Source: an uncultured Bacillota bacterium (lineage in GTDB: Bacteria > Sysuimicrobiota > Sysuimicrobiia > Sysuimicrobiales > Segetimicrobiaceae). From it: a DNA stretch of 64,000 bases. The notes beneath the pieces were generated by a model that saw only the letters and a program-made list of their open reading frames with translations, had not been told where the DNA came from and searched no databases. Of the stretch, positions 7,055 to 62,980 are shown piece by piece; position 1 is the stretch's first letter; each line of letters starts with the position of its first letter. The stretch spans positions 64,001 through 128,000 of the forward strand of contig CAWDRG010000019.1 of assembly GCA_963804645.1 (NCBI GenBank), read 5' to 3'. A program made the translations under genes and the position numbers.

Positions 7055-7084
7055 ACCTTAGCATTCCCCAATGAGGGTTGTCAA
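7055..7084 (-). promoter_or_regulatory. sigma70-type promoter (IS target site 1)
   Basis: Minus strand: TTGACA-18 bp-TAAGGT with a TG extended -10. Confidence 0.75.
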
Positions 7085-7089
7085 CCGAT

Positions 7090-8511
7090 CGAATCAACTC
7101 ACCTAAAATCTTACTATGAGCCGCATCGTCAAATCACGAAGGATCTTACCGGGCGCGCCGTCCCAGTCTATCGCCCCGGAGGCCCCGGTGACCCCTGCCG
7201 CTCGTCGCGAATACGTCCGCGCCGTTCGCCCACGCTACACGCTTGCGCCGCGCAAACACCGGCGCGCGATCCTGGACGAATTCTGTGCCACGACCGGGTA
7301 CCATCGCAAATACGCGATCACGGTGCTAAACGGCCCGTTGCCCACACCGGCCCCCCCACGCCGTCGGCAGCCCGTCTATGCCGAGCAGACGGTCACCGTG
7401 CTCGCGGCGATTTGGGAGGCCGCGGGATACCCCTGGTCCGCACGGCTCCAGGCGCTGCTGCCGCTCTGGTTGCCCTGGGCCCGCCGTCATTTCACCATCC
7501 CGCGGGCGGTGCTGCGTGCGCTCCCCAAGATGAGTCCCAGTACGATCGACCGGCGCCTGCGCAGTCGGAAGCGCCAGATCCGCCGTCGGCTCTACGGCCG
7601 CACCAAGCCTGGCACGTTGCTCAAGAGCCATATCCCCGTCCGCACCGAGCACTGGGACGTCACGGCCCCCGGCTTCGTGGAAGTCGACTTGGTCTCCCAT
7701 TCCGGCAACTCGGCCGTGGGGGACTTCCTCCAATCGCTCAACCTGACGGACATCCAGACGGGGTGGGTGGAGTCTCGGGCCCTCCTGAGCAAGACGCAGC
7801 GCGGCGTGCAGCGGGCGCTCGCGGAGCTGCGGGCGGCGCTGCCCTTTGCGCTCCGCGGCCTCGATTCCGACAATGGCTCGGAGTTCATCAACACGGTGTT
7901 GTGGGAGTATTGCCGAGGGTCGAAGATCGAGTTCACCCGCAGCCGGCCCTACAAGAAAAACGACAACGCCCACGTGGAGCAGAAAAACTGGACCCACGTG
8001 CGCAAGCTGTTGGGCTGGGACCGCTACGACTCCGCCGAGGCGCTCACGGCGATCAACGACCTCTACCGCCACGAACTGCGCCTGATGATGAACCTCTTTC
8101 AGCCGTCGGTCAAGCTGGTCGGCAAGACGCGGGTCGGCGCCAAGGTCCACCGGACCTACGATCGCGCGCAAACGCCCGTGGATCGGCTCCTCGCCTCCAA
8201 ACAGGGCGATCCGCGACAACTCCGGACCTTAGCGCGCCTGCGGGCCAAGATCGATCCCTTCGCCTTGGGGGCCGCCATCGATCGCAAGCTCGAGCGCATC
8301 TATCAGCTGGCCAACCGGCGTCACAGTCCCCGCGCCAGCACCCCAGAGGCCCGCCCGGTCGACGCGCGGTTCCAGCCGCGCGCGCACCACTGGAACAACG
8401 ACTGGTTGTTTGCCAAGCGACAGGATCGTCGCGCCACCGCCGGTTCCGCGGTAAGAACTTAAATGACCTGACGATACCCTCTCCGGTAAGGTTCTTTAAT
8501 GACTTGACACG
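7090..8511 (+). mobile_element. 1422-bp DDE insertion sequence, copy 1 (ISNCY-like / IS481-related)
   Basis: Ends CGAATCAACTCA... and ...TGACTTGACACG; CCGAT duplicated at 7085-7089 and 8512-8516; near-identical inverted copy at 54084-55505. Confidence 0.92.
7188..8462 (+). CDS. DDE transposase (integrase core)
   Basis: GFVEVDLVSH, LDSDNGSEF, NDNAHVEQKN; GTG at 7188 after GGAGG (the ORF track starts at 7116). Confidence 0.9.
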   Translation: MTPAARREYVRAVRPRYTLAPRKHRRAILDEFCATTGYHRKYAITVLNGPLPTPAPPRRRQPVYAEQTVTVLAAIWEAAGYPWSARLQALLPLWLPWARRHFTIPRAVLRALPKMSPSTIDRRLRSRKRQIRRRLYGRTKPGTLLKSHIPVRTEHWDVTAPGFVEVDLVSHSGNSAVGDFLQSLNLTDIQTGWVESRALLSKTQRGVQRALAELRAALPFALRGLDSDNGSEFINTVLWEYCRGSKIEFTRSRPYKKNDNAHVEQKNWTHVRKLLGWDRYDSAEALTAINDLYRHELRLMMNLFQPSVKLVGKTRVGAKVHRTYDRAQTPVDRLLASKQGDPRQLRTLARLRAKIDPFALGAAIDRKLERIYQLANRRHSPRASTPEARPVDARFQPRAHHWNNDWLFAKRQDRRATAGSAVRT

Positions 8512-8689
8512 CCGATCCGACTCGGCGGCCGGCGCGCGCAAATGTAACGACGCGCCACCGCGGAGCGTGTTCGTCGCGAGCACGCGGTGACCGGGGCGCG
8601 GCAAGGTGCGGCCCCGCACCGCGGGGAAGTTCGTCCGCCGACGTCCGGACGCGATCGCGCTGGTGGCGGCTGAGGGAGGGTTCCGGGGA

Positions 8690-9424
8690 ATGGTGACCAT
8701 CGAGACTCTGATCGTGGCCAGCGTGCTCGCCGCGACCTATCTCGGGGCCGCGCGGGTGACGGTGGTCCGGGGAGGGTTTGCCCGTCGATGGCTGTCGGCC
8801 GCCGCCGGCGTCTCTGTCGCCTACGTGTTCATGGACATCCTCCCGGAGCTTGAAACACAGCACCAGCTTTACGTCGCGGCGATTGGGGAGAACGCGTTTT
8901 TCACGGAGCAGCGGATCTATATTGCCGCGCTCATCGGGTTCGTGCTGTTCTATGGATTCGATCGCTTTCTCTTCCGGCGTGCGGCCGGTGGGGACACGCC
9001 CGCCGAGCACAACGCGACCGATGCGGCCTTTTGGGTGCACGTCGGCGGCTACGCGGTGTACAGCTGGTTGATCGGGTACCTCCTGATCGAACGAGCGGAC
9101 TTGGGCGCGCGGGTGCTTGCGCTGTACGGCATCGCCATGATGCTCCACCTGACCTTGGTCAGCCACACGCTCGTCCGGCGTCACGGCCAGGCGTATACGC
9201 GGGTCGGTGCATGGATCCTGGCGGCGAGCATTCTCGCGGGGTGGGCGACCGGTGTGATGATCGAGATGCCCGTCGTTGTGATCGCGCGAGTGTTCGCGTT
9301 CGTGGCCGGCGGGATTGTGATGACCAGCATGAACGAGGAGCTCCCGGCCGGACAGGACGGAAATTTCTGGTGGTTCTCCGGGGGCGCGGCGGTCTACGCG
9401 TTCATTCTCCTCGCGACTCACTGA
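8690..9424 (+). CDS. Multi-pass membrane protein, possibly a ZIP-like transporter
   Basis: About 7-8 hydrophobic segments; AGVSVAYVFMDILPEL and EELP motifs. Confidence 0.6.
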   Translation: MVTIETLIVASVLAATYLGAARVTVVRGGFARRWLSAAAGVSVAYVFMDILPELETQHQLYVAAIGENAFFTEQRIYIAALIGFVLFYGFDRFLFRRAAGGDTPAEHNATDAAFWVHVGGYAVYSWLIGYLLIERADLGARVLALYGIAMMLHLTLVSHTLVRRHGQAYTRVGAWILAASILAGWATGVMIEMPVVVIARVFAFVAGGIVMTSMNEELPAGQDGNFWWFSGGAAVYAFILLATH

Positions 9425-9529
9425 CGGCGAGACGGCGCTCCGCGCAGCCATGCCAGTCGTTCGCGCGGTATCCTGAATGAGGGGGGATGTGTCCGGCGCC
9501 GAGCTGCCGGTGCCCCCGTACAGCGCCGG

Positions 9530-10531
9530 TCAGAACTTGCTCAAGAGGAGGCGCACGGCGACGGCCGTCAGGATGCTGGTCCCGATGGCCACCATCCGCG
9601 CCATGACCGCCTCGCCCACCGGCCACCTCTGAATCGTCGCGACGTGCTGCTCCAGTGCTTTGGCCGCGTTGATGCGTCCGATCTGCGCCGTGAGGGCGTC
9701 CAGCGACCACTCGGCCTCGACGGGGGCGAACGCCTCGCCGTGGAGCCGTCGGACGTGGACGAGATACCGCCGCCTCGCGGCGATGAGCTGCTCGTGAAGC
9801 CGGTATAGGGAGAGGAAGAACGCCGCAATCCCCACGGCGAAGTGCCCCAAGACATAAATGGTGGACTGCCGGTCATGGGCGGTCGCGAGGGCGAAGGGAA
9901 CGAGTGCCACGACGAACAGCGTGAACGCCGCGGAGGCCAACTGCCCCAGCGGAGCCAGGCCCAGGCTCCGATCTTGGTGAAACGCTCGGAGCCGCAACGG
10001 TTGCCGTCCGAGACGGTCCAGCCCGAGAAACAGCGTCACGATCGCCCACATCGCACAGTTGCTCGGCAGCCATCCGACGGCGAGGAGCAGGGTGACGGCG
10101 ATGGCGCCCGGCGTGGGATGGCGCAGGAGGTCGTAGCTCCAGACCGACGCGGTCAGCGGACAGAGGAGCAGCGGGCCGATCGTGCTGTTCATCAGACGAA
10201 ACGGATGCGTCCTGGGGTCCGTCGCACGCGCGCCGACCAGTTCGTCGATGAGCGGCTGCAGCGCGTTCACGCGCCGCGCGAGCAGCCGCACCCCCCACAG
10301 CGAGAGGATGTTCACGTACGCGGACCCGAGCGAGAACGCCATGCCGGGGTACGCGGGGACGTGGTACACGCGGTGCGCGAGTTCGTACGTGATCAGCGTG
10401 AGACTTCCCCAGAGGACGACCCACAACGCCCACGGCGGGCCGAGCTTCGCGAGGACGCGCTCGGACAGGGGGGCGATCATGCCGGCTGCGGCACGATCGT
10501 CGAGGGGGGTGTTCACGACGCCGACGGCCAT
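9530..10531 (-). CDS. Hypothetical membrane protein
   Basis: Several TM segments and a DRSLGLAPLG loop; start uncertain. Confidence 0.6.
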   Translation of the reverse strand: MAVGVVNTPLDDRAAAGMIAPLSERVLAKLGPPWALWVVLWGSLTLITYELAHRVYHVPAYPGMAFSLGSAYVNILSLWGVRLLARRVNALQPLIDELVGARATDPRTHPFRLMNSTIGPLLLCPLTASVWSYDLLRHPTPGAIAVTLLLAVGWLPSNCAMWAIVTLFLGLDRLGRQPLRLRAFHQDRSLGLAPLGQLASAAFTLFVVALVPFALATAHDRQSTIYVLGHFAVGIAAFFLSLYRLHEQLIAARRRYLVHVRRLHGEAFAPVEAEWSLDALTAQIGRINAAKALEQHVATIQRWPVGEAVMARMVAIGTSILTAVAVRLLLSKF

Positions 10532-10671
10532 GGGTGCTCGACGGCACTAGTACGGGGAGCGGAGGGACGGTCCCTGCTGCGCCGGACGCGCCTTCGCGCA
10601 GGGCGGCGCACGGTCCCGGCGAAGACACCCGGCGTACGGGCGGGTTCGGTGGGCCGCGGAGGAGGCGCATC

Positions 10672-11859
10672 GTGTACGATCTGGTGTTGACGGGCGGCAC
10701 CCTCGTCGATCCGGCGCAGGCCGTCCGGGCCGTCCGGGATGTCGCATTCGCCGCCGGGCGCGTGGCGGCGGTCGGGACCGGGCTCGCCGCGGCCGGCGCC
10801 GCGGAGGCGATCGACTGCAGCGGGCGCATCGTGGCCCCGGGCATGATCGACCTGCACGTGCACGTGTTCTGGGGGGTGACGTATCTCGGGATCGAAGCCG
10901 ACCCGAACTGCATCGCGAGGGGCGTGACGACGGCCGTCGACGCCGGGTCGGCCGGGGCCGACACCTTCCCAGGGTTCCGCAAGTACGTCATCGATGTGGC
11001 GGCCACGCGGCTGTTCGCGCAGCTCAACATCTCGTCGCAGGGCATGATGAACAGCCAGATCGGCGAGCTGGACGAGCTGCGGTACGCGAACGTGCCGCGC
11101 GCGGTGGCGATGATCGAGCGGCACCGGGACGTGATTCTCGGCGTCAAGGTGCGGCTGACCCGGAACAGCATCGTCGGCCGCGCCGCCGGCATCCGGCCGC
11201 TGTACCTGGCGCGCGAGGCGTCGGACGCGGTCGGGCTGCCGATCATGGTCCACCCGCAGGACGCGTGGTGCGCGTCGCTGGACGACATCCTCGCGGTGAT
11301 GCGCGGCGGCGACATTCTCACGCACTGCTTCCACGGGCTGTCGCACGGGATTCTGGACGCGGACGGCCGCGTGCGTTCCTCGGTCCGCGCGGCGATGGAG
11401 CGCGGGGTCATCTTTGACGTGGGGCACGGGGCGGGCAGTTTCAGCTGGCAGGTGGCCGAGCGGACGCTCAAGCAGGGCGTCGAGCCGCAGACGATCTCAA
11501 GCGACCTCCACGCCCAGAACGTGCACGGCCCGGTGTACGACTTGGCGACGACCGTGACCAAGTTTCTCCACCTCGGCCTTCCGCTCGAGACGGCACTCCA
11601 CAAAGTCACCGCCACGCCGGCGCAGGTCATCCGGATGGCGGACGAGATCGGGACGCTGCGGGTGGGCGCCTGGGGCGACGCGGTGGTGTTCGATTTCGAG
11701 GAGGGGCCCGTTACTCTCACGGATTCGCACGGCGAGACGCGGGTGGGGCGCCAGCGGCTCGTACCACGCACGGTCGTGCGCGCGGGCCGTGTGTATCGGG
11801 AGCCGGGCGGGCCGAGCGCGTCGCACGTGCACCAGCACGGCCACCATCATCACGGATAA
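10672..11859 (+). CDS. Amidohydrolase/deacetylase family metallohydrolase (dihydroorotase-like) with a His-rich tail
   Basis: PGMIDLHVH, GVTTAVDAGSAG, DVGHGAGSF, ISSDLH; GTG after GGAGGAGG. Confidence 0.85.
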   Translation: MYDLVLTGGTLVDPAQAVRAVRDVAFAAGRVAAVGTGLAAAGAAEAIDCSGRIVAPGMIDLHVHVFWGVTYLGIEADPNCIARGVTTAVDAGSAGADTFPGFRKYVIDVAATRLFAQLNISSQGMMNSQIGELDELRYANVPRAVAMIERHRDVILGVKVRLTRNSIVGRAAGIRPLYLAREASDAVGLPIMVHPQDAWCASLDDILAVMRGGDILTHCFHGLSHGILDADGRVRSSVRAAMERGVIFDVGHGAGSFSWQVAERTLKQGVEPQTISSDLHAQNVHGPVYDLATTVTKFLHLGLPLETALHKVTATPAQVIRMADEIGTLRVGAWGDAVVFDFEEGPVTLTDSHGETRVGRQRLVPRTVVRAGRVYREPGGPSASHVHQHGHHHHG

Positions 11860-11968
11860 GGCGGCGGCCTGGGACGCGGAGTCGCCTCCGGTCCGTCGAC
11901 CGGATCGAGGCGGGTGATTTCGCGCGGGGCCGTGGGTACCGCGGTACGCATCCTCGGGAGGTGAGGCG

Positions 11969-12559
11969 ATGCACCCGACACTGCATCCGGACATGGAGCG
12001 GTTCGTCGACGACGTGGCGGCGATCGTGCGCCGGGGCGGAGGCGAAGAGGTCGTCACCGCGAGCGTGGCCGAGCGCCTCGAGACGCTCCTCGGGTCGGCC
12101 GGCGTCCTCGATCCCCGATGCACCACCCCGCATGTCGATAACTACGTCCTCTATCCGGTGTGGGTGGCCCCCGACGGCGGCTTCTCGGTCGCGGCCGCCG
12201 TGTGGAACGTCGGGCAAGTCACGCCCATTCACGACCACGGCACCTGGGGGGTCATCGGGATCTACCGCGGGGTCGAGCACGAGGTCCGCTACGAACTCCA
12301 GCGCGGCCCAGCGGGGCATGCGCTCCGCCAACTGTCGGAGCGGGATATCCGTGCGGGCCACGTGATCGTGTGCTGCACCTCGGATCACGACATTCACCGC
12401 GTGAGCTGCGGGTCGCCTGTGCCGTGCGTCGGCATCCACGTGTACGGCGCGGACATCGGGACGCTGCCGCGCCATGTCTACGATCCGGCGACCGGGCAGA
12501 TGCGGACGTTCGTGTCGGCCTGGACTCCACTCGACGCGCCGCCGCCGGGCGGCGAGTAG
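11969..12559 (+). CDS. Cysteine/thiol dioxygenase family cupin
   Basis: TPIHDHGTWG, DIHRV, IHVYG. Confidence 0.85.
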   Translation: MHPTLHPDMERFVDDVAAIVRRGGGEEVVTASVAERLETLLGSAGVLDPRCTTPHVDNYVLYPVWVAPDGGFSVAAAVWNVGQVTPIHDHGTWGVIGIYRGVEHEVRYELQRGPAGHALRQLSERDIRAGHVIVCCTSDHDIHRVSCGSPVPCVGIHVYGADIGTLPRHVYDPATGQMRTFVSAWTPLDAPPPGGE

Positions 12560-12723
12560 CGCATCTCGGTTCGCGCGCGCAGCGTCCCGATCTGCGCCCG
12601 CGCGGCCCCGCGTTGTCTCGAGGTGCCTCCGAGCGGAGGGATGGGTTCCGCCGCCGCGAACTGACTGGGGCAGGACCGCCGCCGTCCGCGGCGTGCGGAG
12701 GTCACAGGGTTGGTGATCGGGCC

Positions 12724-13866
12724 ATGATCCCATTCGACCGAGAGCGGTTCGAGCGCGCCGCGCGGAAGCGCGGCATCGACGTCGTGCTGGCGACCAGCCG
12801 CCACAACGTCGCGTATCTTACCGGCGGCTATTACAACATGTTTTTCGCCCGCGACCAGCGCTTCGGGGCCGGCCAGTACCTGTCGGCGGTGGCCGTGCCG
12901 GCGGCCCGCATCGAAGGGGCGTTCTACATTGGCCGGGACAGCGAGCGGGACTTTCTCGCCGCGTTCGGACCGCTGTGGATCACCGACGTGCAGTCGGCCC
13001 CCCGCCGCCCGAACATGACGGTCGAAGTCGCGGCGAAAGCCGCCGAGCTGCTGCGCGCCCGGGGACTGGGAGCCGGGACGATCGCGGTGGAGCTGCCGTT
13101 CCTGCCCGCCGACGCGTTTGCCGTGCTCCGCGGCGAGCTGCCCGGCGCGACGTTCGTCGACGCGACACCTGCGCTCTCCGACGTGCGCGCGGTCAAGCGG
13201 CCGGGTGAGCTGGAGCGGCTCGAGCTGGCGCACCGCCGGGTTGCCGACGCCATTCACGCGACGTTTGCGGCGGGCCGGCCGGACGACACGCTGCGGGACC
13301 TGGCCGCCGCCGTCGAGCGCGGCGTCGAGGAGCGCGGGGCGGAGTACCTGTACGCCCTGACGAACGTCGGCCCCGGTCTGGCGCGGGCGGCGACCTCGGA
13401 ACGCTGGGGGCGCGGCCGTCCGCTGCACATCGATGCGGGTGCCGAGGTCGACGGCTATCGCGCCGACGTCGCGCGCATGGGATCGATCGGCGCCGCGCCC
13501 GCCCGCGCGCTTGAGATGTTCGAGGCGTGCGTCCGCGCCCAGGCCGGGATTCGCGGGCGCGTCGGGCCCGGCGTGGCGTGCCGCGACCTGTGGCGGATCG
13601 GCACCGACGCGATGGCCGCCGGACCGTTTGGGCGGTTTGGGAAGTTCCAGGCCCACGGCATCGGTCTGGTGAGCCACGAAGTGCCCGCGGTGACGCCGGA
13701 GAGCGACGCGGTGCTGGAACCGGGCATGGTCGTGTCGGTCGAGACCGATTACCTCGATCCCGAGATCGGGCACATCAAGCTGGAGGACTCCGTCGTCGTC
13801 AGCGGCGCGGGATGCGAAGGGCTCGGAGACGTACACCGCGGGTGGTCCACGGTCGCCGGCGCGTAG
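12724..13866 (+). CDS. M24 (Xaa-Pro peptidase/creatinase) family protein
   Basis: HID.G...DGYRADVAR, HGIGLVSHE, LEPGMVVSVE, IKLED. Confidence 0.85.
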   Translation: MIPFDRERFERAARKRGIDVVLATSRHNVAYLTGGYYNMFFARDQRFGAGQYLSAVAVPAARIEGAFYIGRDSERDFLAAFGPLWITDVQSAPRRPNMTVEVAAKAAELLRARGLGAGTIAVELPFLPADAFAVLRGELPGATFVDATPALSDVRAVKRPGELERLELAHRRVADAIHATFAAGRPDDTLRDLAAAVERGVEERGAEYLYALTNVGPGLARAATSERWGRGRPLHIDAGAEVDGYRADVARMGSIGAAPARALEMFEACVRAQAGIRGRVGPGVACRDLWRIGTDAMAAGPFGRFGKFQAHGIGLVSHEVPAVTPESDAVLEPGMVVSVETDYLDPEIGHIKLEDSVVVSGAGCEGLGDVHRGWSTVAGA

Positions 13867-14015
13867 CGGCGGCATCCGTCCGGCACGTCCTCACGTCTAT
13901 CGGCTCCCCCGATGGTGCATAACGCGGCGAGAGGGGCTCCATCTCGTCCCCGGCGATCGTTTCTCGGCCGCACATCGCGGACGCGTGGGCGGTTGCGCAG
14001 GAAAGGAGGAGCGCC

Positions 14016-14831
14016 GTGCGGCCGGTCGCTGCTGCCGTCGCGCTCGGATTCATCATCCTGACCACCGGCATCGCCCGAGGGCAGGTTCCCGCCGCGGGCG
14101 CGGAGGGGATGTCGGTGACCGACGTCCCGCTTGCGAACGGGGCCGTCGACCGCACGCTCCTGCTGATGCCGTCCGGGCCGCCGCGCGCGGTCCTGGTGAT
14201 GTTTTCCGGCGGCGACGGGGTGCTCCACATCGACCCGACCGGTGCCATCGGCATCTCCGGCAACTTCCTCGTGCGCACGCGCGACCTGTGGGTCCAGCAG
14301 GGGTTCGCCGTGGCCATTCCCGACGCGCCGAGCGATGCTGCGGCGGGCCTCCAGGGGCGCCGCCTCAACCGAGGCTACGCCGACGTGATCGCGCGCGTTG
14401 TGGCCTTTGTCCACGCCGAGACGCAGATGCCCGTGTGGCTCGTTGGCACCAGCGCGGGGACGCCCGCGGCGGCGTTCGGTGCCGCGATGCTCCCGCATGA
14501 CGCGGTGGCGGGTCTGGTGCTGACCTCAAGCGTGAGCCGCGCCGTCCCCGACTCGCCGGAGACGGTCTTTCAGGCAAACCTGAAGGTCATTACCGCGCCC
14601 ACGCTCATCCTGTCGAACACCCACGACGAGTGCAAGTCCACGCCTCCCTCCGACGGCCCCCGGATCAAGGCGGCACTCGGCCGCGCCACGCCGGTCGAGT
14701 TTCAGACCGTGGCGGGCGGGACGCTTTCCGAGTCCACCGATCCGTGCGATTCGTACGCGTACCACGGGTTTTACGGGATTGAGCCGCAGGTGGTGCAGAA
14801 GATCTCGGACTGGATCCTCCGGCATTCCTGA
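14016..14831 (+). CDS. Secreted alpha/beta hydrolase
   Basis: Signal peptide, GNFLVRTR, nucleophile elbow GTSAG, C-terminal HGFYG. Confidence 0.8.
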   Translation: MRPVAAAVALGFIILTTGIARGQVPAAGAEGMSVTDVPLANGAVDRTLLLMPSGPPRAVLVMFSGGDGVLHIDPTGAIGISGNFLVRTRDLWVQQGFAVAIPDAPSDAAAGLQGRRLNRGYADVIARVVAFVHAETQMPVWLVGTSAGTPAAAFGAAMLPHDAVAGLVLTSSVSRAVPDSPETVFQANLKVITAPTLILSNTHDECKSTPPSDGPRIKAALGRATPVEFQTVAGGTLSESTDPCDSYAYHGFYGIEPQVVQKISDWILRHS

Positions 14832-14892
14832 CGCGTTCGGCCGGGGGACGATCGACCGAACCAGCGACGCCCGGACCGGCGCGCGGCCCGGG

Positions 14893-15897
14893 TCAGCCGA
14901 GTCGGTGCATCCAGAGCAGCGAGACGGCCATCGTGCCGACGAACAGCGCGGCGACGCCGAGCGAGGCGATCCCGCTGACCTCGATCGGCCGGATCTCCCA
15001 CCCGATGATATGGCCGAGCCGCGTGTACACCCGGTCGAGATCGCCCTGGGTGGTGACGCGCTGGTACGTCCCGCCGGTGGTGAGCGCGATCCGCTTGAGC
15101 GTTTCCTCGTCGAGCTGAATATAGGCGTTGCGTCCGCCGAGTTCCAAGAACGTCCCCTCCGGACGCCCCAGCCCGATCGTGTACACCGTGACCTTCAGCT
15201 GTTTGGCCACGGCCGCGGCTTCCTCCGGCGGCACCCCGCGGTTGCTCTGCCCGTCGCTGAGCAGCACGACCGTCGCGGGGACCAGCCGGTCGGTATCGAC
15301 GGGCGGCGTGGCCGGGACCGTGGGCGCACTGTACGCGTTGAGGGGGTTGGTGAGGCGCGGGCGGCCGGGCAGCGCGTACACCGCCTCGAGCAGCCCGTCG
15401 CCGATCGCGGTCGCAAACTCGACCTGGAGGTTGTTGATCGCGTCGATCACCTGCGCGTGCTCGGCGGTCGGTGGCGTGACCAGGGTGGCGTAGCTGCTGA
15501 ATGAGACCAGCCCGACCTTGGTGTCTTTCGGCAGCGCCGTGACGAACTTCACCGCCGCCGCCTTCGCCGCGTCGAGCCGGCTCGGCGTCACGTCTCTCGC
15601 ACGCATGCTGCGGCTCACGTCGATGCTCATCATCACGACCGTGCGGTTGTCGGGGGTCGGCACGGCGGCAACCGGACGCGCGACCGTGAAGATCACGGCG
15701 CACAGGGTCGCGAGATAGAGGACCGCCGGCACGTGGCGGCGCCAGCGGCCGCCGGCCGCGGCCGCGCGCGTCACGAGATCGAGGGTGGAGTACGTCATGC
15801 GCTCCCGCGGGGGGCGCCGCACGATCCAGATGTACGCGCCGACGAGCGCGGGCACCGTGAGATAGACGAGGAGGGCCGCCGGCCAGAGGAAGCTCAT
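14893..15897 (-). CDS. VWA-domain membrane protein (BatA-like)
   Basis: MSFLWP N-terminus, MIDAS DVSRS, TAIGDGL, LLSDG, C-terminal TM. Confidence 0.85.
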   Translation of the reverse strand: MSFLWPAALLVYLTVPALVGAYIWIVRRPPRERMTYSTLDLVTRAAAAGGRWRRHVPAVLYLATLCAVIFTVARPVAAVPTPDNRTVVMMSIDVSRSMRARDVTPSRLDAAKAAAVKFVTALPKDTKVGLVSFSSYATLVTPPTAEHAQVIDAINNLQVEFATAIGDGLLEAVYALPGRPRLTNPLNAYSAPTVPATPPVDTDRLVPATVVLLSDGQSNRGVPPEEAAAVAKQLKVTVYTIGLGRPEGTFLELGGRNAYIQLDEETLKRIALTTGGTYQRVTTQGDLDRVYTRLGHIIGWEIRPIEVSGIASLGVAALFVGTMAVSLLWMHRLG

Positions 15898-17217: not shown

Positions 17218-17219
17218 CC

Positions 17220-50472: not shown

Positions 50473-50484
50473 CGCATGAAAATG

Positions 50485-51690: not shown

Positions 51691-51699
51691 GCAGACCCC

Positions 51700-53979: not shown

Positions 53980-54083
53980 CGAGGGACCTCCTGTGCCCGC
54001 GCTGGCCCGGCCGCGGTCGCACACGCCGGTGAGGTGCTTCGCGATGCGCCGTCGTGAGTTCCTCGGTGGGCGCCCGTGTTTCA

Positions 54084-55505
54084 CGTGTCAAGTCATTAAA
54101 GAACCTTACCGGAGAGGGTATCGTCAGGTCATTTAAGTTCTTACCGCGGAACCGGCGGTGGCGCGACGATCCTGTCGCTTGGCAAACAACCAGTCGTTGT
54201 TCCAGTGGTGCGCGCGCGGCTGGAACCGCGCGTCGACCGGGCTGGCCTCTGGGGTGCTGGCGCGGGGACTGTGACGCCGGTTGGCCAGCTGATAGATGCG
54301 CTCGAGCTTGCGATCGATGGCGGCCCCCAAGGCGAAGGGATCGATCTTGGCCCGCAGGCGCGCTAAGGTCCGGAGTTGTCGCGGATCGCCCTGTTTGGAG
54401 GCGAGGAGCCGATCCACGGGCGTTTGCGCGCGATCGTAGGTCCGGTGGACCTTGGCGCCGACCCGCGTCTTGCCGACCAGCTTGACCGACGGCTGAAAGA
54501 GGTTCATCATCAGGCGCAGTTCGTGGCGGTAGAGGTCGTTGATCGCCGTGAGCGCCTCGGCGGAGTCGTAGCGGTCCCAGCCCAACAGCTTGCGCACGTG
54601 GGTCCAGTTTTTCTGCTCCACGTGGGCGTTGTCGTTTTTCTTGTAGGGCCGGCTGCGGGTGAACTCGATCTTCGACCCTCGGCAATACTCCCACAACACC
54701 GTGTTGATGAACTCCGAGCCATTGTCGGAATCGAGGCCGCGGAGCGCAAAGGGCAGCGCCGCCCGCAGCTCCGCGAGCGCCCGCTGCACGCCGCGCTGCG
54801 TCTTGCTCAGGAGGGCCCGAGACTCCACCCACCCCGTCTGGATGTCCGTCAGGTTGAGCGATTGGAGGAAGTCCCCCACGGCCGAGTTGCCGGAATGGGA
54901 GACCAAGTCGACTTCCACGAAGCCGGGGGCCGTGACGTCCCAGTGCTCGGTGCGGACGGGGATATGGCTCTTGAGCAACGTGCCAGGCTTGGTGCGGCCG
55001 TAGAGCCGACGGCGGATCTGGCGCTTCCGACTGCGCAGGCGCCGGTCGATCGTACTGGGACTCATCTTGGGGAGCGCACGCAGCACCGCCCGCGGGATGG
55101 TGAAATGACGGCGGGCCCAGGGCAACCAGAGCGGCAGCAGCGCCTGGAGCCGTGCGGACCAGGGGTATCCCGCGGCCTCCCAAATCGCCGCGAGCACGGT
55201 GACCGTCTGCTCGGCATAGACGGGCTGCCGACGGCGTGGGGGGGCCGGTGTGGGCAACGGGCCGTTTAGCACCGTGATCGCGTATTTGCGATGGTACCCG
55301 GTCGTGGCACAGAATTCGTCCAGGATCGCGCGCCGGTGTTTGCGCGGCGCAAGCGTGTAGCGTGGGCGAACGGCGCGGACGTATTCGCGACGAGCGGCAG
55401 GGGTCACCGGGGCCTCCGGGGCGATAGACTGGGACGGCGCGCCCGGTAAGATCCTTCGTGATTTGACGATGCGGCTCATAGTAAGATTTTAGGTGAGTTG
55501 ATTCG
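54084..55505 (-). mobile_element. 1422-bp DDE insertion sequence, copy 2
   Basis: Inverted near-identical copy of 7090-8511; TTTCA duplicated at 54079-54083 and 55506-55510. Confidence 0.92.
54133..55407 (-). CDS. DDE transposase (copy 2)
   Basis: Same protein as 7188-8462 except PEARP vs PEASP. Confidence 0.9.
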   Translation of the reverse strand: MTPAARREYVRAVRPRYTLAPRKHRRAILDEFCATTGYHRKYAITVLNGPLPTPAPPRRRQPVYAEQTVTVLAAIWEAAGYPWSARLQALLPLWLPWARRHFTIPRAVLRALPKMSPSTIDRRLRSRKRQIRRRLYGRTKPGTLLKSHIPVRTEHWDVTAPGFVEVDLVSHSGNSAVGDFLQSLNLTDIQTGWVESRALLSKTQRGVQRALAELRAALPFALRGLDSDNGSEFINTVLWEYCRGSKIEFTRSRPYKKNDNAHVEQKNWTHVRKLLGWDRYDSAEALTAINDLYRHELRLMMNLFQPSVKLVGKTRVGAKVHRTYDRAQTPVDRLLASKQGDPRQLRTLARLRAKIDPFALGAAIDRKLERIYQLANRRHSPRASTPEASPVDARFQPRAHHWNNDWLFAKRQDRRATAGSAVRT

Positions 55506-55510
55506 TTTCA

Positions 55511-55540
55511 TTGACAGGGGGACGCGTCGGATTGTAAGGT
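55511..55540 (+). promoter_or_regulatory. sigma70-type promoter of tRNA-His (IS target site 2)
   Basis: TTGACA-18 bp-TAAGGT, 13 nt upstream of the tRNA. Confidence 0.8.
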
Positions 55541-55553
55541 GGGGTATGCACGC

Positions 55554-55629
55554 GGTGGCCGTAGCTCAAGGGCAGAGCACCAGACTGTGGCTCTGGGGGT
55601 TGCGGGTTCAAGTCCCGTCGGCCACCCCA
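55554..55629 (+). tRNA. tRNA-His(GUG)
   Basis: G-1, acceptor GTGGCCG/CGGCCAC, C discriminator, encoded CCA, anticodon arm CCAGA-CTGTGGC-TCTGG, TTCAAGT T-loop. Confidence 0.97.
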
Positions 55630-55726
55630 CGTCTCCGCCTGATGCCCGTGCCCGTGGTGGCGGGCCCCGAGTCCGAGGACCTGCGCGTCGTCGCCGATCG
55701 ACACCTGCACCCCGGGAGGCGATCCC

Positions 55727-55939
55727 ATGCGTGAGGAAGAGCAACCGGTCGTGATGACCGGGATCGACGTGCAGTTCGACGCGGCCGGCGGCCGCTGGGT
55801 CGCGGCCTGCGACGACCCGGGCGGCGACGCGCGTCTCGTCGTCGCCGCCGAGACGAGAGCGCGCGCGGAACGGCTGCTCGACGAGCGGTGGCGCGCCCGG
55901 CTGGAGGGGCTCGACCGGGAGGCTGAGGAAGAGCGCTAG
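55727..55939 (+). CDS. Small hypothetical protein
   Basis: 70 aa, GGAGG RBS, fills the gap between tRNA and MBL gene. Confidence 0.5.
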   Translation: MREEEQPVVMTGIDVQFDAAGGRWVAACDDPGGDARLVVAAETRARAERLLDERWRARLEGLDREAEEER

Positions 55940-55997
55940 GCGGTCGGCCGGTCGGGAGGGCTGACCCGCGCGCGGTGCGAACTTCTCCGGAGTCGCC

Positions 55998-56789
55998 ATG
56001 TCCGTCGCCCACTCACGCCCGCCGGCAGACCTCGAGACCCTCGTCGCGCCCAACGCGTCCCCGTACACCCTGGACGGGACGAACACGTATCTGCTCGGTG
56101 GGCCAGACATCGTGGTCATTGACCCAGGTCCCGACGACGCCGGACATGTGTCCCGCATCCTCGCTCACGCCGCGGGGCGGCGCGGCCGGGTCTCGCTGAT
56201 TCTGGTGACCCACGGACACGAGGACCATGAGGGAGCCGCGCGGTCGCTCGCCGAGGCGAGCGGGGCGCCGGTCGGCCGATGGCACGGGGGGGACCGACCG
56301 CTCGATGATGGGCCGGTCATTGGGGAGGGCCCGGTGCGTCTCCGCGTTCTGCACACGCCCGGGCACGCGCCCGATCATGTCGCGCTGCTGTGGGAAGAGC
56401 GGCGCACGCTGTTTTCGGGCGATCTCGTGCTCGGACGGGGGACGGTCACGGTGTCGCCGCCCGAGGGGTCGATGGACGACTATCTGCGGTCGCTCGCGCG
56501 CGTTGCGTCGCTCGATCTTGCGGCGATCGCGCCGGGACACGGACCCATGATCGAAGATCCCGCGCCCCGTGTGGCCGAATACCTGGCGCACCGCCGGTTG
56601 CGGGAGCGGCAGGTGCTGGAGGCGGTGGCCGCCGGGCCGCGGACGCCCGGGGAGATCTCGGCGCTGCTGTACCCGGATCTCGACCCGCGGCTGCACCCTG
56701 CGGCAGAGGGGAACGTACTCGCGCACCTGCTGAAACTCCTCGGCGAGGGACGTGTCGAGCGCGCGGGGAATCGCTACTACACGCCCTGA
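55998..56789 (+). CDS. MBL-fold hydrolase (LACTB2-like, C-terminal winged helix)
   Basis: APN.SPYTLDGTNTY, THGHEDH, HTPGH, FSGD, PGHG. Confidence 0.9.
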   Translation: MSVAHSRPPADLETLVAPNASPYTLDGTNTYLLGGPDIVVIDPGPDDAGHVSRILAHAAGRRGRVSLILVTHGHEDHEGAARSLAEASGAPVGRWHGGDRPLDDGPVIGEGPVRLRVLHTPGHAPDHVALLWEERRTLFSGDLVLGRGTVTVSPPEGSMDDYLRSLARVASLDLAAIAPGHGPMIEDPAPRVAEYLAHRRLRERQVLEAVAAGPRTPGEISALLYPDLDPRLHPAAEGNVLAHLLKLLGEGRVERAGNRYYTP

Positions 56790-56825
56790 CGGCGGGACGG
56801 GCGGACGCGAGGGGAGTGGATAGTG

Positions 56826-57038
56826 ATGGCGGTGCCGGTGACAGTCGAGCATGCGGTACATGATCGGAACGGGGGAGACGTGGTCGTCGGGAGCAAGGTC
56901 CGGATCGACGGGCAGCCCGACCCGGTCGAGGTGCACGAGATCGACCCTCGCTACGGCACGCTCGTGGTGTTGGTGCCGGGCCGGGCGGGGCAGCACATGG
57001 GATTGATGCTGCACGCATCAGACGTCGTCCTGGCCTGA
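56826..57038 (+). CDS. Small hypothetical protein (possibly an SH3/KOW-like barrel)
   Basis: DRNGGDVVVGSKVRI; RBS GGAG. Confidence 0.55.
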   Translation: MAVPVTVEHAVHDRNGGDVVVGSKVRIDGQPDPVEVHEIDPRYGTLVVLVPGRAGQHMGLMLHASDVVLA

Positions 57039-57050
57039 CGAGGTTGCCTC

Positions 57051-57087
57051 AAAGCAGTCGGCGGGGGCTTCCGCCCCCGCCGACTGC
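57051..57087 (-). terminator. groEL terminator (possibly bidirectional)
   Basis: Perfect 15-bp stem GCAGTCGGCGGGGGC-TTCC-GCCCCCGCCGACTGC with TTT following on the minus strand. Confidence 0.8.
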
Positions 57088-57107
57088 GCCGAACCGGATC
57101 GTGCGTC

Positions 57108-58835
<1,728 letters not shown>

Positions 58836-59034
58836 TGGGGAATGAACGGCATCGCGGAGGCTCGGGGCCGATTTGACGGGTTTATCCCACTATCGCTCAG
58901 TATTTCTCTCGATATCTCTCGCGATCTGAATGGGACGACATCAGCCTTGGCGGGTAAGGCGGACGCATGGTGGGGGAGTTCCGCGCCTGGGTGTCAAACT
59001 TCAATGCCGGAGCGTCGAGAGGGAGGAATTGGGA

Positions 59035-59730
59035 GTGGCCTCGTGGGGGCGTGCCACCGCGGCGTTGTTGTGCCTCGCGGGCTTTCTCCTGGTCTTGCAG
59101 GTGCGGGCATACCGGGAGCTGAGCGCGGGTATTGAACTGCCGTCTCGGCGCCTGGAAGATCTCCTCGTGCTGATTCGGCGCCAGCAGGACTCGGACCGGG
59201 CGCTGCGCGACGAGGTCGCGTCGCTCGAGGCGAAGCAGCAGGAGATCCGAGCGACCGAGGCCGCGGGGCGCAGCCTCGCCGACGCGATGCGCCATGAGAT
59301 GGACGGGTACCGGCTGGCCCTGGGCATGACTGCGGTGGCCGGCCCGGCGATCTCCGTGACGCTCGCGGCAGACCCGAAACACGTCTCCGTGCCCCAAGCG
59401 CAGGACGTGGCGGCCATGGTCAACGAGCTCTGGGGAGCCGGGGCCGAGGCAGTATCGGTCAACGGGCTCAGGATGCTGGCGACCGATGGCGTCGTGTCGT
59501 CGGGGCGGGGCGTCCGGATCGCCGGGCGTCCCACGGGCGAGCCGTATGTGATCGTGGCGATCGGCGACCCCGCGGTCCTCGACGAGGCCTTGACGGTGCC
59601 CGGGGGTGCCGTCGACGGATTGCGCGGGGTCGGGCTCACGGTGACGCTGCGGCGGATTCCCCAGGCGGTGCTCCCGGCGTTCTCACGGACGGTCGAGTTT
59701 CACGTCGCCCGGCCGCTCCCCGGCCCCTGA
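59035..59730 (+). CDS. DUF881 domain protein
   Basis: TM plus coiled coil, LG...V.GP, VNELWGAGAEAVSVNG.R, PYVIVAIGDP. Confidence 0.88.
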   Translation: MASWGRATAALLCLAGFLLVLQVRAYRELSAGIELPSRRLEDLLVLIRRQQDSDRALRDEVASLEAKQQEIRATEAAGRSLADAMRHEMDGYRLALGMTAVAGPAISVTLAADPKHVSVPQAQDVAAMVNELWGAGAEAVSVNGLRMLATDGVVSSGRGVRIAGRPTGEPYVIVAIGDPAVLDEALTVPGGAVDGLRGVGLTVTLRRIPQAVLPAFSRTVEFHVARPLPGP

Positions 59731-59784
59731 TGGATCGCAGCGGGGCCGCAGCGGGTCGTACCGGCGGCGCTCTACCGGAGGGGG

Positions 59785-59941
59785 AAAATGATCGACGGCC
59801 GCCGCCCGGTGCGGGTTCCCGCCCTGGGCTGTCGCAGCCGTCGATGTCCCGTCCTGGAGAAGCTGCCCGCCTTGCGCCGGTGAGGCGTCAACGCTTGTCT
59901 GACTCGCCGGCGTCGCAGACCGCTCTTATCGAGACGGGTAC
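59785..59941 (-). ncRNA. Candidate structured small RNA
   Basis: Promoter at 59944-59973, two long adjacent hairpins (59846-59941 and 59791-59845), then TTTT. Confidence 0.5.
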
Positions 59942-59943
59942 AT

Positions 59944-59973
59944 AAACTACCACGTTCGTGAGTCGGTTGTCAA
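59944..59973 (-). promoter_or_regulatory. sigma70-type promoter (IS target site 3)
   Basis: Minus strand TTGACA-18 bp-TAGTTT with a TG extended -10. Confidence 0.7.
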
Positions 59974-59989
59974 GAGTCGAATCACGCCA

Positions 59990-61413
59990 TGTATTAGCTC
60001 CATGACTTTGTCACCCCTTAACGGCTCAGTGATTCTGTCACCCTGGGAGGATGACCAGGGAGACGATCACCTTGACCAAGCAGGAGCAACAGCGTGCACA
60101 TGTACTGTCTAAGGTGCAGGAGGGCACTCTTACGGCCAGTGCGGCGGCGAGCCTCATGAGCCTGTCGGTGCGGCACGTCCGGCGGTTGCTGGCGGAGGTG
60201 CGGGCGCAGGGACCCGCCGCCTTGGCCCACGGGAATCGCGGGTGCGTGTCCCACCGGCGCTTGTCCGACGCCGTACGGACCCAGGTCGTGACCTTGGCCC
60301 GCACGACCTATGCCGGCATCAATGATCATCAGCTCACCGAGCTCCTGCGGGAACGGGAAGCCCTCACCGTCTCGCGGCCCTCGGTCCAGCGCCTGCTGCG
60401 CGAAGCTGGCATCGGGAGTCCGCGGACCCGCCGCCCGCCTCGCCATCGCCGCCGCCGCGAGCGGATGCCGCAAGCCGGCTTGCTCATTCAGATGGACGGC
60501 AGTCACCACCCGTGGCTGGAGGACCGCGGGCCCCGCCTCGTCCTGCTCGCCGCGATCGATGATGCGACGGGCGAATTGCTCGGCGGCATCTTTCGCGAGG
60601 AAGAGGACTCGCACGGCTACCTGCTACTCCTCCGCCAGCTGATCACGCGCTATGGCGTGCCTGCGGCCATCTACACTGATCGTCACGGCATTTTCCATCG
60701 CGATCCCCGCACGCCCCTGACGGTCGCGGAGGAGCTCGAGGGACGACTGGAATCCACCCAGGTCGGCCGCGCGATGCAAGAATTGGGCCTCAAGTGGATC
60801 CCGGCCAATTCGCCGCAGGCGAAAGGTCGAGTAGAACGGCTCTTCGGCACGCTGCAAGATCGCTTGGTCGTCGAGCTGCGACTCGCGGGCGCGCAAACGG
60901 GCGCGCAGGCCCAGCGGGTCTTCAACCGCTTTCGACGGCGGTTCAACGCCCGCTTTGCCCACGCGCCCGCAGACGCCACACCGGCGTGGCGCCCCGCGCC
61001 GCCAGATCTGGAGCAGGTCTGTTGTTTCAAGCACGAGCGCAAGGTCCAGCACGACAATACCGTCCAACTGCAGGGCCGGTGGCTGCAACTGCGCCCCGGC
61101 CCCAACGGCCGCAGCTACGCCGGCCTCCGCGTGACCGTTCGAGCGCACTTGAACGGCACGCTCGCCGTCGTCTATCGGGGACAGCCACTGGCCGTCCGGA
61201 CGTTGTCGCACGCTCCGCGCCGGGCCACGGCGAGCCACAGCGCCACCACCGCCCAGCCCGCGGCGGCGGCCCCCGCGCCGCGCACTCCAACCGTCCCGTC
61301 GTCCACCCACCCCTGGCGACGGATGATCCAAGACGACATCTACAGGCAGCGCTTGCTCCAGAGGTGACATTTTCACAAATCCGTTAGGGTGACAGGATTA
61401 CTGAGCTATGACA
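59990..61413 (+). mobile_element. IS1202-like / ISNCY element A with a long target duplication
   Basis: IRs TGTATTAGCTCCATGACTTTGTCACCC and (reverse complement) TGTCATAGCTCAGTAATCCTGTCACCC; flanks GAGT(C)CGAATCACGCCA at 59974-59989 and 61414-61430. Confidence 0.88.
60051..61367 (+). CDS. DDE transposase, IS1202/IS481-like
   Basis: N-terminal HTH, IQMDGSHH.W, YTDRH, SPQAKGRVER, C-terminal HPWRR. Confidence 0.9.
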   Translation: MTRETITLTKQEQQRAHVLSKVQEGTLTASAAASLMSLSVRHVRRLLAEVRAQGPAALAHGNRGCVSHRRLSDAVRTQVVTLARTTYAGINDHQLTELLREREALTVSRPSVQRLLREAGIGSPRTRRPPRHRRRRERMPQAGLLIQMDGSHHPWLEDRGPRLVLLAAIDDATGELLGGIFREEEDSHGYLLLLRQLITRYGVPAAIYTDRHGIFHRDPRTPLTVAEELEGRLESTQVGRAMQELGLKWIPANSPQAKGRVERLFGTLQDRLVVELRLAGAQTGAQAQRVFNRFRRRFNARFAHAPADATPAWRPAPPDLEQVCCFKHERKVQHDNTVQLQGRWLQLRPGPNGRSYAGLRVTVRAHLNGTLAVVYRGQPLAVRTLSHAPRRATASHSATTAQPAAAAPAPRTPTVPSSTHPWRRMIQDDIYRQRLLQR

Positions 61414-61418
61414 GAGTC

Positions 61419-62848
61419 CGAATCACGCCATCTAAAATCTTACCGGGGCCCCGATCGTCGCGCCATCGAGAATCTTACCAGCGTTACACTCATCTTACGC
61501 CCCGGGAGGCCGCAGTGACTCCTCGATCCAGACGGGAATATGCCGCGATCATCCGCGAGCGCTATGCCAAGGCGACCCGCGAGGCGAAGCAGCGGATCCT
61601 CGACGAATTCTGCGCCACGACCAAGTACCATCGAAAATATGCGATTGCGGTGCTGGGGCATGCCCCTACACCGGCGGCCGCCCCACGGCGACGGCGACGC
61701 CCCACGTACGGCGCCCAGACGATCTCCGTACTCGCCACGATTTGGGAGGCGGCCAGCTATCCATGGTCGGCGCGGCTCAAAGCGCTCTTGCCGCTCTGGC
61801 TGCCCTGGGCGACACGCCACCTGCCCATCGCGCCCGGCGTGGAGCGGCAGTTGCGTCGGCTCAGCGCCCGGACCATGGACCGCCGCCTCGCCACGAAGAA
61901 ACGGCGCCTGCAGCGGCGCTTCTACGGCCGCACTAAGCCGGGGACCCTGCTCAAGCACCACATCGCCATCAAGACCGAGCATTGGGAGGTGAGTACGCCA
62001 GGCTTCACCGAGATCGACTTGGTCTCCCACTCGGGCAATGCCGCCGACGGCGACTTCCTCCAGTCGCTCAATCTCACGGATATCCACACCGGCTGGGTCG
62101 AAACGCGGGCCGTCATGGGCAAGGGACAAACGGCCGTCCGCGCGGCCTTGGAGGAGTTGCGGCAGGCCCTGCCGTTTCCCCTGCGCGGCATCGACTCTGA
62201 CAATGGCTCCGAGTTTATCAACAATCATCTCGTGCGCTACTGTGCCGATCGGAAGATTCAATTCACCCGCGGCCGCCCCTACAAAAAGGACGACAATGCC
62301 CACATTGAACAAAAGAACTACACGCATGTCCGCAAGCTGATGGGCTGGGAGCGCTACGATTCGCCGCACGCCCGCGCCCGCATGAATGACCTGTATCAGC
62401 ACGAAGTGCGGCTCATGATGAATCTCTATCAACCGTCCGTGAAGCTGCTCCGCAAGGAGCGCATCGGGTCCCGGCTCACGCGGCGCTATGATGCCCCCAA
62501 GACCCCGCTCGATCGCCTGGCGGCTACGCCGGGCGTCGACGCGGCCACCATCCGCGCGCTCCACCAGCTCCGTGCCCAACTCGACCCGTTCGCGTTGGCC
62601 GCCGCGATCGATCAGAAACTCAGCGTCATTCACCAGGCTGCCAATCATCGCCTCAGTCCCCGCGATGCCACCATGCCGCCCCCGGCCGTCACACCGTCCG
62701 TTCGCGCCACCCATGCTCCTCACCGCTGGGACCACAACTGGTTCTTCCCGAAGGCGGTCGCCCAACGTCGCGGCGGCCGCACTCTGGTAAGAACTTAAAT
62801 GGCGCGATGATACCTTCCCGGGTAAGATTCCTTAATGGCTTGACGGGG
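61419..62848 (+). mobile_element. DDE insertion sequence B, a diverged relative of 7090-8511
   Basis: Left end CGAATCACGCCATCTAAAATCTTACC; right end GGTAAGATTCCTTAATGGCTTGAC; flanked by GAGTC on both sides. Confidence 0.88.
61515..62798 (+). CDS. DDE transposase B
   Basis: GFTEIDLVSH, IDSDNGSEF, DNAHIEQKN; GTG after GGAGG. Confidence 0.9.
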   Translation: MTPRSRREYAAIIRERYAKATREAKQRILDEFCATTKYHRKYAIAVLGHAPTPAAAPRRRRRPTYGAQTISVLATIWEAASYPWSARLKALLPLWLPWATRHLPIAPGVERQLRRLSARTMDRRLATKKRRLQRRFYGRTKPGTLLKHHIAIKTEHWEVSTPGFTEIDLVSHSGNAADGDFLQSLNLTDIHTGWVETRAVMGKGQTAVRAALEELRQALPFPLRGIDSDNGSEFINNHLVRYCADRKIQFTRGRPYKKDDNAHIEQKNYTHVRKLMGWERYDSPHARARMNDLYQHEVRLMMNLYQPSVKLLRKERIGSRLTRRYDAPKTPLDRLAATPGVDAATIRALHQLRAQLDPFALAAAIDQKLSVIHQAANHRLSPRDATMPPPAVTPSVRATHAPHRWDHNWFFPKAVAQRRGGRTLVRT

Positions 62849-62865
62849 GAGTCCGAATCAACTCA

Positions 62866-62980
62866 TGTAATAGGTCAATGAATTTGTCACCCGGTAACGG
62901 GCCAGTGATTCTGTCACCCTGGAATAATGAACAGGGAGACGATCACCGTGTTACGGTGACAGGATTACTGAGCTATGACA
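62866..62980 (+). mobile_element. 115-bp non-autonomous derivative C of the element A type
   Basis: A-like left end plus the first codons (MNRETIT) joined to a right end identical to A's terminal GGTGACAGGATTACTGAGCTATGACA. Confidence 0.8.

Follow-up and report, generated by a model that had tools for sequence, protein, structure and literature searches.

Insertion sequences of two unrelated transposase families lie at a fixed position beside sigma-70-type promoter sequences

What decides where a small transposable element comes to rest in a bacterial genome? The question is raised by a stretch of 64,000 nucleotides (C19:64001-128000, hereafter the window) from the 5.3-Mb assembly of an uncultured Bacillota bacterium with a G+C content of about 69%, in which several insertion sequences (IS) lie in front of genes (C2, C5, C6, C9, C10, C11, C13, C15 and C19 denote contigs of this assembly). 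Two sorts of IS are concerned, under the working names ISA and ISA2 for two related elements of a probable integrase-fold type, and ISB for an element of the IS1202 family, ISTde1 type. A sequence-only reading of the window had proposed that every traceable insertion abuts the -35 box of a sigma-70 promoter. The position rule is real, extends well beyond the window and is statistically overwhelming. The best explanation, which we consider rather likely, is that both types of IS choose sigma-70-type promoters, and that the reader would be the promoter-bound RNA polymerase holoenzyme.

Three sites in the window display the rule. At the first, ISA copy 1 (7090-8511, plus strand, 1422 bp), with a left inverted repeat (IRL) starting CGAATCAACTCACC and a right inverted repeat (IRR) ending AATGACTTGACACG, is flanked by a 5-bp duplication, CCGAT (left copy 7085-7089, right copy 8512-8516). 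The left copy adjoins promoter P1 (7055-7084, minus strand), with its -35 TTGACA at 7084-7079, a spacer of 18 bp and its -10 TAAGGT at 7060-7055; the forward strand reads TGTCAA at 7079-7084 and ACCTTA at 7055-7060, and P1 fires left, away from ISA. At the second, ISA copy 2 (54084-55505, minus strand), duplicating TTTCA (54079-54083 and 55506-55510), stands before promoter P2 of a tRNA-His gene (55511-55540, plus strand; TTGACA 55511-55516, spacer 18, TAAGGT 55535-55540). The third, promoter P3 (59944-59973, minus strand; TTGACA 59973-59968, spacer 18, TAGTTT 59949-59944), reads TGTCAA at 59968-59973 followed by GAGT on the forward strand, with the -10 as AAACTA at 59944-59949, and is the target of four stacked insertions. 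At all three sites the IRL points towards the promoter, which fires away from the element. The succession of TGTCAA, duplication and left end, the 18-bp spacers and their coordinates are as first claimed, and the uniform orientation and intact core promoters were confirmed on re-reading the sequence.

The stack at P3 (59968-62980) comprises, from the promoter outward, ISB, ISA2, an ISA left-end stump and an ISB-type miniature element. ISB (59990-61413, plus strand; ends TGTATTAGC...TATGACA; transposase 60051-61367) carries a 16/17-nt duplication: the left copy (59974-59989), GAGT followed by CGAATCACGCCA, has 16 nt and is one base short, while the right copy (61414-61430) has 17 nt and is made up of GAGTC, the duplication of ISA2, followed by the 12 bases with which the ISA2 left end begins. 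ISA2 itself (61419-62848, plus strand; transposase 61389/61515-62798) is flanked by GAGTC at 61414-61418 and 62849-62853. Next come the 12-bp stump (CGAATCAACTCA, 62854-62865, plus strand), a remnant of the oldest readable layer, and the miniature element (62866-62980, plus strand, 115 bp), which is unique in the genome and consists of ISB's left end and right end (87% and 97% identity) without a transposase. The simplest history is that of four insertions at one promoter edge, in the order ISA, miniature, ISA2 and ISB, each pushing the older ones outward. The stack shows that both element types use the same anchor, and that all needed determinants lie on the promoter side.

The sequence to the right of the miniature element (62981-63010; GAGTG CGAAGTGCC...) matches the expected second copy of its duplication at 10/17 positions, and its start resembles the left terminus of the distant ISA-like element on C15. 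No transposase remnant was found within 3.5 kb to the right of the miniature element. An earlier layer of the stack, or a scar left by recombination, could account for this short sequence.

Across the genome, BLAST detected five ISA copies (99.8-100% identity), two of ISA2, one truncated copy, a divergent one on C5 and a distant one on C15. Eight ISA-type targets can be traced; a C11 copy truncated on the left and a C6 fragment of 215 bp are not part of this count. The targets read TTGACA-N18-TAAGGT at both window sites 1 and 2, TTGACA-N18-TAGTTT at the stack, TTGACA-N17-TACAGT on C6, TTGACG-N17-TAGGCT on C5, TTGCGC-N18-TACGCT on C15, TTCCCC-N18-TATAGT on C9 and TTGCGG-N18-TATCGT on C13; the -35 is poor in the last two, yet their -10 is TG-extended. 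A -35-like hexamer adjoining the duplication, with TAnnnT at a spacer of 17-18, is therefore present in 8/8. The strict pattern TTGACA-N17/18-TAnnnT occurs at 79 sites on both strands of the 5.3 Mb (7.4e-6 per position and strand), and four of the eight targets fall exactly on such a site (binomial 2e-19). On C6, a full-length ISA2 and an ISA stand head to tail, each of the three junctions reading TACAT, so that one promoter was struck twice. The claim that these elements abut a -35 box consequently stands for all eight, whereas the narrower one, that they abut TTGACA, fails in general (TTCCCC, TTGCGG, TTGACG and TTGCGC).

Relatives of ISA were collected in a scan of one genome per species, which listed 80 loci of 591 related stretches from many phyla, including Acidobacteriota, Binatia, Rokubacteria, Nitrospirota, Planctomycetota, Verrucomicrobiota, Chloroflexota, Elusimicrobiota, and a few Proteobacteria and Firmicutes; the relatives of the transposase that were scored number more than 7,900, which is a lower bound. 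Left ends were placed by a weight matrix derived from 36 elements with a clean 5-bp duplication and inverted repeats, the flanks being left unused. Nine of the 80 loci were dropped for want of a left flank or a left end, and the other 71, with seven targets of this genome, gave 78 distinct insertions. They were compared with 14,870 positions drawn at random from the flanks of these loci and with 73 right flanks.

The position directly after the 5-bp duplication (position 6) is a T in 67/78 left flanks. TTG adjoins the duplication in 40/78 (1.4% at random, 0/73 right flanks), and TAnnnT follows at a spacer of 17-18 in 60/78 (1.1% at random, 2/73 right flanks) or of 16-19 in 63/78 (2.1% and 3/73); TTG and TAnnnT occur jointly in 34/78, as compared with 0.03% of random positions. 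Subsets with a verified 5-bp duplication (35/46) and without a verified duplication (22/26) agree. Among 52 verified duplications, 46 have 5 bp, and the element end that faces the target is invariably the left one. A second, independent set came from 94 genomes of this phylum, in which 27 loci yielded 15 new insertions; it takes in a clade at 41-45% identity and gave TTG in 12/15 and TAnnnT at 17-18 in 12/15. Intergenic insertions survive better in general, and this is all that speaks for chance, or for random insertion followed by purifying selection alone. With binomial probabilities between 1e-32 and 1e-101 relative to random positions in these loci, a base-exact register and a strict orientation (no TTG in any right flank), that explanation is refuted, and we give it practically no weight.

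The same rule is kept by the second transposase type. From 30 loci of this phylum and 80 listed metagenome loci, 25 ISB-type insertions could be delimited, with duplications of 16 bp (12 cases), 17 bp (eight), 15 bp (three) and 18 bp (two). TTG adjoins the duplication in 19/25 left flanks (1/25 right flanks, 1.3% at random), the exact TTGACA does so in 11/25 (1/25 right flanks, 0 at random), and TAnnnT is found at a spacer of 16-19 in 23/25 (1/25 right flanks, 2.1% at random) and of 17-18 in 22/25. When L094, from an unpublished genome, is left out (n=24), TTG is counted in 19, the exact TTGACA in 11 and TAnnnT at 16-19 in 22. A third ISB-type copy in this genome, a decayed one with a stop in its transposase (C19:53688-54670, ~9.3-10.3 kb before the window start), has its left end 17 bp from TTGTCT-N17-TACCAT, the promoter of the sole tRNA-Arg(TCT) gene. 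The two transposases have no BLASTP similarity (E 0.5), and the earlier claim that two transposase types behave in this way is upheld. The flank survey of other copies that the sequence-only reading had proposed favours the promoter rule throughout: 8/8 in this genome, 60/78 family-wide, 12/15 in the second set and 22/25 for the ISB type.

The form of the ISA-type target bears on what is being read. Information in the target logo is found at the -35, at the -10 and in a G at -14, with almost none in the spacer or the duplication and none in the right flank. The G at -14, typical of an extended -10, is present in 41 of the 71 targets having nAnnnT. The -10 is about as frequent as the -35; in the logo, positions 29-34 score below positions 6-8, spacers of 17 and 18 being mixed. 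Spacer lengths are 17 in 41 targets, 18 in 19 and 19 in six, while the -35 register is constant, and a variable spacer with a fixed -35 register is the tolerance expected of sigma-70. The exact TTGACA is present in 7/78 targets, so that an adjacent TTGACA, as first suggested, does not hold as a family-wide rule. In addition, TTG occurs in 0/7 insertions without nAnnnT (spacer 16-19) and in 40/71 of those having it: the two signals are present together or absent together, which argues against a simple reading of TTGACA. Direct reading of this hexamer, one of the two mechanisms originally offered, is therefore disfavoured; the other, tethering to RNA polymerase or sigma, would agree with the data.

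A more elaborate form of direct readout supposes that each transposase reads a bipartite motif resembling -35 and -10 on naked DNA, RNA polymerase being uninvolved. It would suit the base-exact position in both families and the abundance of exact TTGACA among ISB-type targets, as well as the right end of the ISA family, which bears TTGACA 2 bp inside the tip (e.g., 8498-8511), TTGACA or TCGACA being found in most family members. A helix-turn-helix-like region predicted at the N-terminus of the ISB transposase, and a helical N-terminal domain confidently modelled in that of ISA, could serve such reading. Nevertheless, the motif is degenerate in the manner of sigma-70 (TTGnnn, TAnnnT, extended -10 G, spacers 16-19), two dissimilar transposases would both need to evolve its recognition, and the target logo has no preference for the sequences around the TTGACA of the element's own end. 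Direct readout is, on balance, unlikely.

The right-end hexamer also lends itself to end mimicry combined with selection. Targeting of sequences resembling their own ends has been described for other insertion sequences; here, -35-like hexamers would be bound as lookalikes of the right end, and harmless insertions in front of promoters would survive, hence the -10 boxes. The five ISA copies are, however, 99.8-100% identical and all four of their targets are promoters (one shared in tandem), which leaves little time for selection. End mimicry further predicts TTG without a -10, but none of the seven promoter-missing insertions has TTG. Moreover, the 5.3 Mb contain 641 TTGnnn-N17/18-TAnnnT sites as against ~10^5 TTG hexamers (an estimate, uncounted), so that selection would have to remove >99% of insertions. 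We regard this explanation as quite improbable, more so than direct readout.

Are the targeted promoters those of the host, or were they brought along by the elements? A public peat metagenome run contains a mismatch-free contig in which 54077 is followed directly by 55505, 1427 bases (1422 + 5) being absent. As this corresponds to ISA plus one copy of the duplication, with the promoter kept, the contig represents the empty tRNA-His site; in another metagenome run, a contig ends at the boundary of ISA copy 2. The tRNA-His gene (55555-55629), which starts 14 nt past P2, is the sole tRNA-His among the 51 tRNAs found in the assembly. Five genomes of the same genus without ISA retain TTGC(A/G)(C/T)-N17/18-TAA(G/C/A)GT before tRNA-His; the promoter aligns, whereas the DNA upstream of it is not syntenic. 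A tRNA gene also lies downstream of the targeted promoter at loci L017 and L063, and the best open reading frame runs in the promoter direction in 49/59 left flanks as compared with 29/59 right flanks (Fisher 2e-4). These data show that the targeted promoters belong to the host and that the elements have been mobile recently, while the tandem pair on C6 and the stack at P3 show repeated hits on one promoter.

Downstream of P1, the probable gene start, read by eye on the minus strand, is a GTG behind GGAAGGTGA, ~95 nt away. Between the two (6995-7045, minus strand), a G+C-rich hairpin followed by ATTTTTGT resembles an intrinsic terminator, ~15-45 nt past the expected start of the P1 transcript; Rfam has no match there, and a scan of the whole window with Rfam returned nothing but the tRNA. 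The hairpin could be a leader or attenuator, or belong to a very short RNA.

The preferred reading, recognition of sigma-70-type promoters through the bound holoenzyme, draws on the fact that two unrelated transposases share the sigma-70 recognition pattern. Since target and -35 edge are identical for both, a common host factor is simpler than two independently evolved bipartite DNA readers. Both elements, active DDE insertion sequences on this reading, integrate in one orientation, the left end facing the promoter, with the duplication starting at the base beside the first T of the -35 and extending over 5 bp in the ISA family and 15-18 bp in the ISB type. Neither the core of the promoter nor the gene that follows is disrupted and, the determinant being on the promoter side, the site is reusable, with the newest element nearest to the promoter. 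The holoenzyme might be read through contact with sigma region 4, its nearest part, or with the alpha C-terminal domain, or alternatively through the DNA bend made by sigma at the -35 element. One strand transfer would take place at the -36/-35 step, where standard DDE chemistry would put the cut on the promoter template strand, and the other cut would fall 5 or about 16 bp upstream. The benefit may be that of a safe harbour, allowing multiplication without gene breakage in any phylum, since the target is universal.

Several observations weigh against this reading. At least 7/78 insertions of the ISA family (9%) are at no promoter, having no nAnnnT at a spacer of 16-19, and the strict TAnnnT is missing in 15/78; the claim that every traceable insertion sits at a promoter thus holds in this genome and fails family-wide, where about one in ten is off-target. 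The exact TTGACA is much commoner in ISB-type than in ISA-type targets (11/25 vs 7/78), a hint that the -35 is to some extent read directly in a family-specific way and, as the right end of ISA carries this hexamer too, a domain of its transposase may read it. Promoter activity, lastly, is deduced from sequence and context; RNA runs contained almost none of the sequence words sampled. Of the seven off-promoter insertions, five come from a single Binatia genome; 4-bp duplications are seen in three, and several lie within long open frames. The Binatia loci concerned (L057, L058, L060, L061 and L065) are five of that genome's eight usable copies (L080, among the nine loci listed, belongs to a different genome), and may reflect loosened targeting in that lineage, or a burst so recent that purging has yet to act.

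As to the elements themselves, ISA has imperfect terminal repeats of ~26 bp and a single open reading frame of 448 codons. The longest frame in copy 1 is 7116-8462, its ATG at 7116 being just 26 bp from the element tip; the true transposase start is probably the GTG at 7188, which is preceded by GGAGG and agrees with the family consensus. ISA2 shares 70% DNA identity and 59% protein identity with ISA. The left end of the ISA family carries TAAAAT 14 bp inside the tip (e.g., 7090-7115), as part of a symmetric repeat found at both ends. In a hypothetical ISA circle, 16+x bp would separate the TTGACA of the right end from the TAAAAT of the left, an arrangement that is promoter-like only if x = 1-2; in a circle keeping the 5-bp duplication the end-to-end promoter spacing would not fit, and this is a hint only. 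A 505-bp repeat (C13:24925-25428), also found on C2 (100% identity), C10, C9, C19 and C15 and with an apparent TA duplication at its flanks, splits one of the ISA copies 61 bp short of the right end; the repeat looks like a separate miniature transposon family.

The ISB transposase scores 383 bits against NF033594 (ISNCY_2, IS1202 group; cut-off 250), and its motif VERLFGTLQ places a Q seven residues past the catalytic E, E262 being invariant in the alignment and Q269 nearly so. By family model, 16/17-nt duplication, TGT...ACA ends and Q at E+7, its sequence assigns ISB to the IS1202 family, ISTde1 type. ISA is harder to place. It scores 24-29 bits against Pfam rve (24.2 for copy 1), below the cut-off of 32.6; D191, D250/D252 and E288 are invariant in an alignment of 65 family sequences, and the family profile matches HIV integrase cores at E 0.002. 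AlphaFold models reached a mean predicted local distance difference test score (pLDDT) of 55 with 14 sequences and 64.5 with 65 sequences. A Foldseek search of the latter model against PDB gave nothing at E <= 0.001 (best, IstA 8b4h at E 0.023), and the N- and C-terminal parts gave sub-threshold Pfam matches alone. The ISA transposase is, provisionally, an unclassified DDE enzyme, probably of the integrase fold.

Membership of IS481 was rejected for ISA, whose scores of 43.7 and 44.6 bits are far below the cut-off of 224. Nor does the 5-bp element belong to IS1202: ISA has no NF033594 match at E <= 0.001, its ends are CGAATC...GACACG, V295 rather than Q stands seven residues after E288, and BLASTP finds no similarity to ISB. 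It does share one trait of the ISAba32 subgroup of IS1202, a 5-bp duplication next to which the left end adjoins the target site. Neither ISA nor ISB is Mutator-like (p-MULT), as they match solely integrase-type, IS481, IS3 and ISNCY models. The nearest named relatives of the ISA transposase are unclassified enzymes from rhizobial plasmids, termed 'ISNCY' or Y4rL-like (~38-42% identity across 85-90% of the length), Pfam Y4rL_C being named for one related Atlas cluster. Three rhizobial elements of this kind (L082, L083 and L209, annotated ISNCY or DDE-type, ~40% identity) differ in their size of 1.7-1.9 kb, their ends and their 7-8-bp duplications, and are not beside promoters there (by eye, n=3).

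Several known systems invite comparison. According to passages of Guerillot et al. 2014 (PMC3942029), the Mutator-like TnGBS, ISLre2 and ISKra4 insert 15-17 bp upstream of the -35 with the right end towards the promoter, their asymmetric inverted repeats fix the orientation, and a safe-haven reading is proposed. Promoter-directed, oriented insertion is common to them and to ISA and ISB; the fold is Mutator-like there and probably of integrase (rve) type here, and in ISA and ISB it is the left end that faces the promoter, at an end-to-hexamer distance of 5 bp (ISA) or 15-18 bp (ISB), with a duplication that touches the -35. In the ISAba32 subgroup of IS1202, as described in passages of Siguier et al. 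(bioRxiv 10.1101/2022.12.17.520857) and of Harmer and Hall (PMC10132070), XerCD sites are targeted, with the left end one 5-bp duplication away, a constant orientation and pile-ups; the authors leave open both contact with a bound host protein and reading of the site architecture. The 5-bp gap, the left end first, the fixed orientation and the pile-ups are the geometry of ISA as well. ISAba32 elements, though, go to the XerC arm of dif-like sites and not to a promoter, and ISA differs by lacking the NF033594 match, by ends of CG...CG instead of TGT...ACA and by V instead of Q at E+7. ISB resembles the ISTde1 subgroup in family model, 16-17-bp duplication, TGT...ACA ends and Q at E+7; in the same passages, no target is given for that subgroup beyond its not being Xer sites. 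The word 'promoter' occurs 0 times in PMC10132070 and four times in bioRxiv 10.1101/2022.12.17.520857, none of them on insertion target.

A full-text literature search, outside which lies the supplementary site table of the preprint, retrieved no report of integrase-type or IS1202-type elements abutting a -35. Promoter-directed bacterial transposition is thus in print for Mutator-like elements alone, with the mechanism unsolved, and ISA and ISB add two further, unrelated families. In eukaryotes, Ty3 and Ty1 of yeast and TRE5-A of Dictyostelium integrate beside RNA polymerase III genes by binding transcription factors. They likewise use the transcription machinery as a harmless address, and tRNA genes are among the targets of ISA and ISB too; these are, however, retroelements with known protein tethers, whereas for ISA and ISB a tether is only inferred.

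Both families are very common in uncultured soil and sediment bacteria. Their geometry is sharper than in the known promoter-targeting case because the duplication touches the -35 hexamer, and with one gene in 1.4 kb they constitute a simple system for learning how a transposase reads the transcription machinery. The rule accounts for head-to-tail piles of IS before genes. It also provides an aid to annotation: in phyla whose promoters are otherwise unknown, the left end of such an element pinpoints a host promoter with single-base precision. Targeting of Xer sites and targeting of promoters may be two versions of one docking principle. We tentatively propose, giving it somewhat less than an even chance, that at least two unrelated integrase-type lineages independently adopted promoter-bound sigma-70 RNA polymerase for target selection, with strand transfer at -36/-35 and the helical spacing of IS1202 (5, 16 or 27 bp) setting the second cut on the same DNA face, and that docking on a DNA-bound host protein may lie behind both kinds of targeting. 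If this is true, these small one-gene elements would be natural tools for integration beside promoters, usable in any bacterium.

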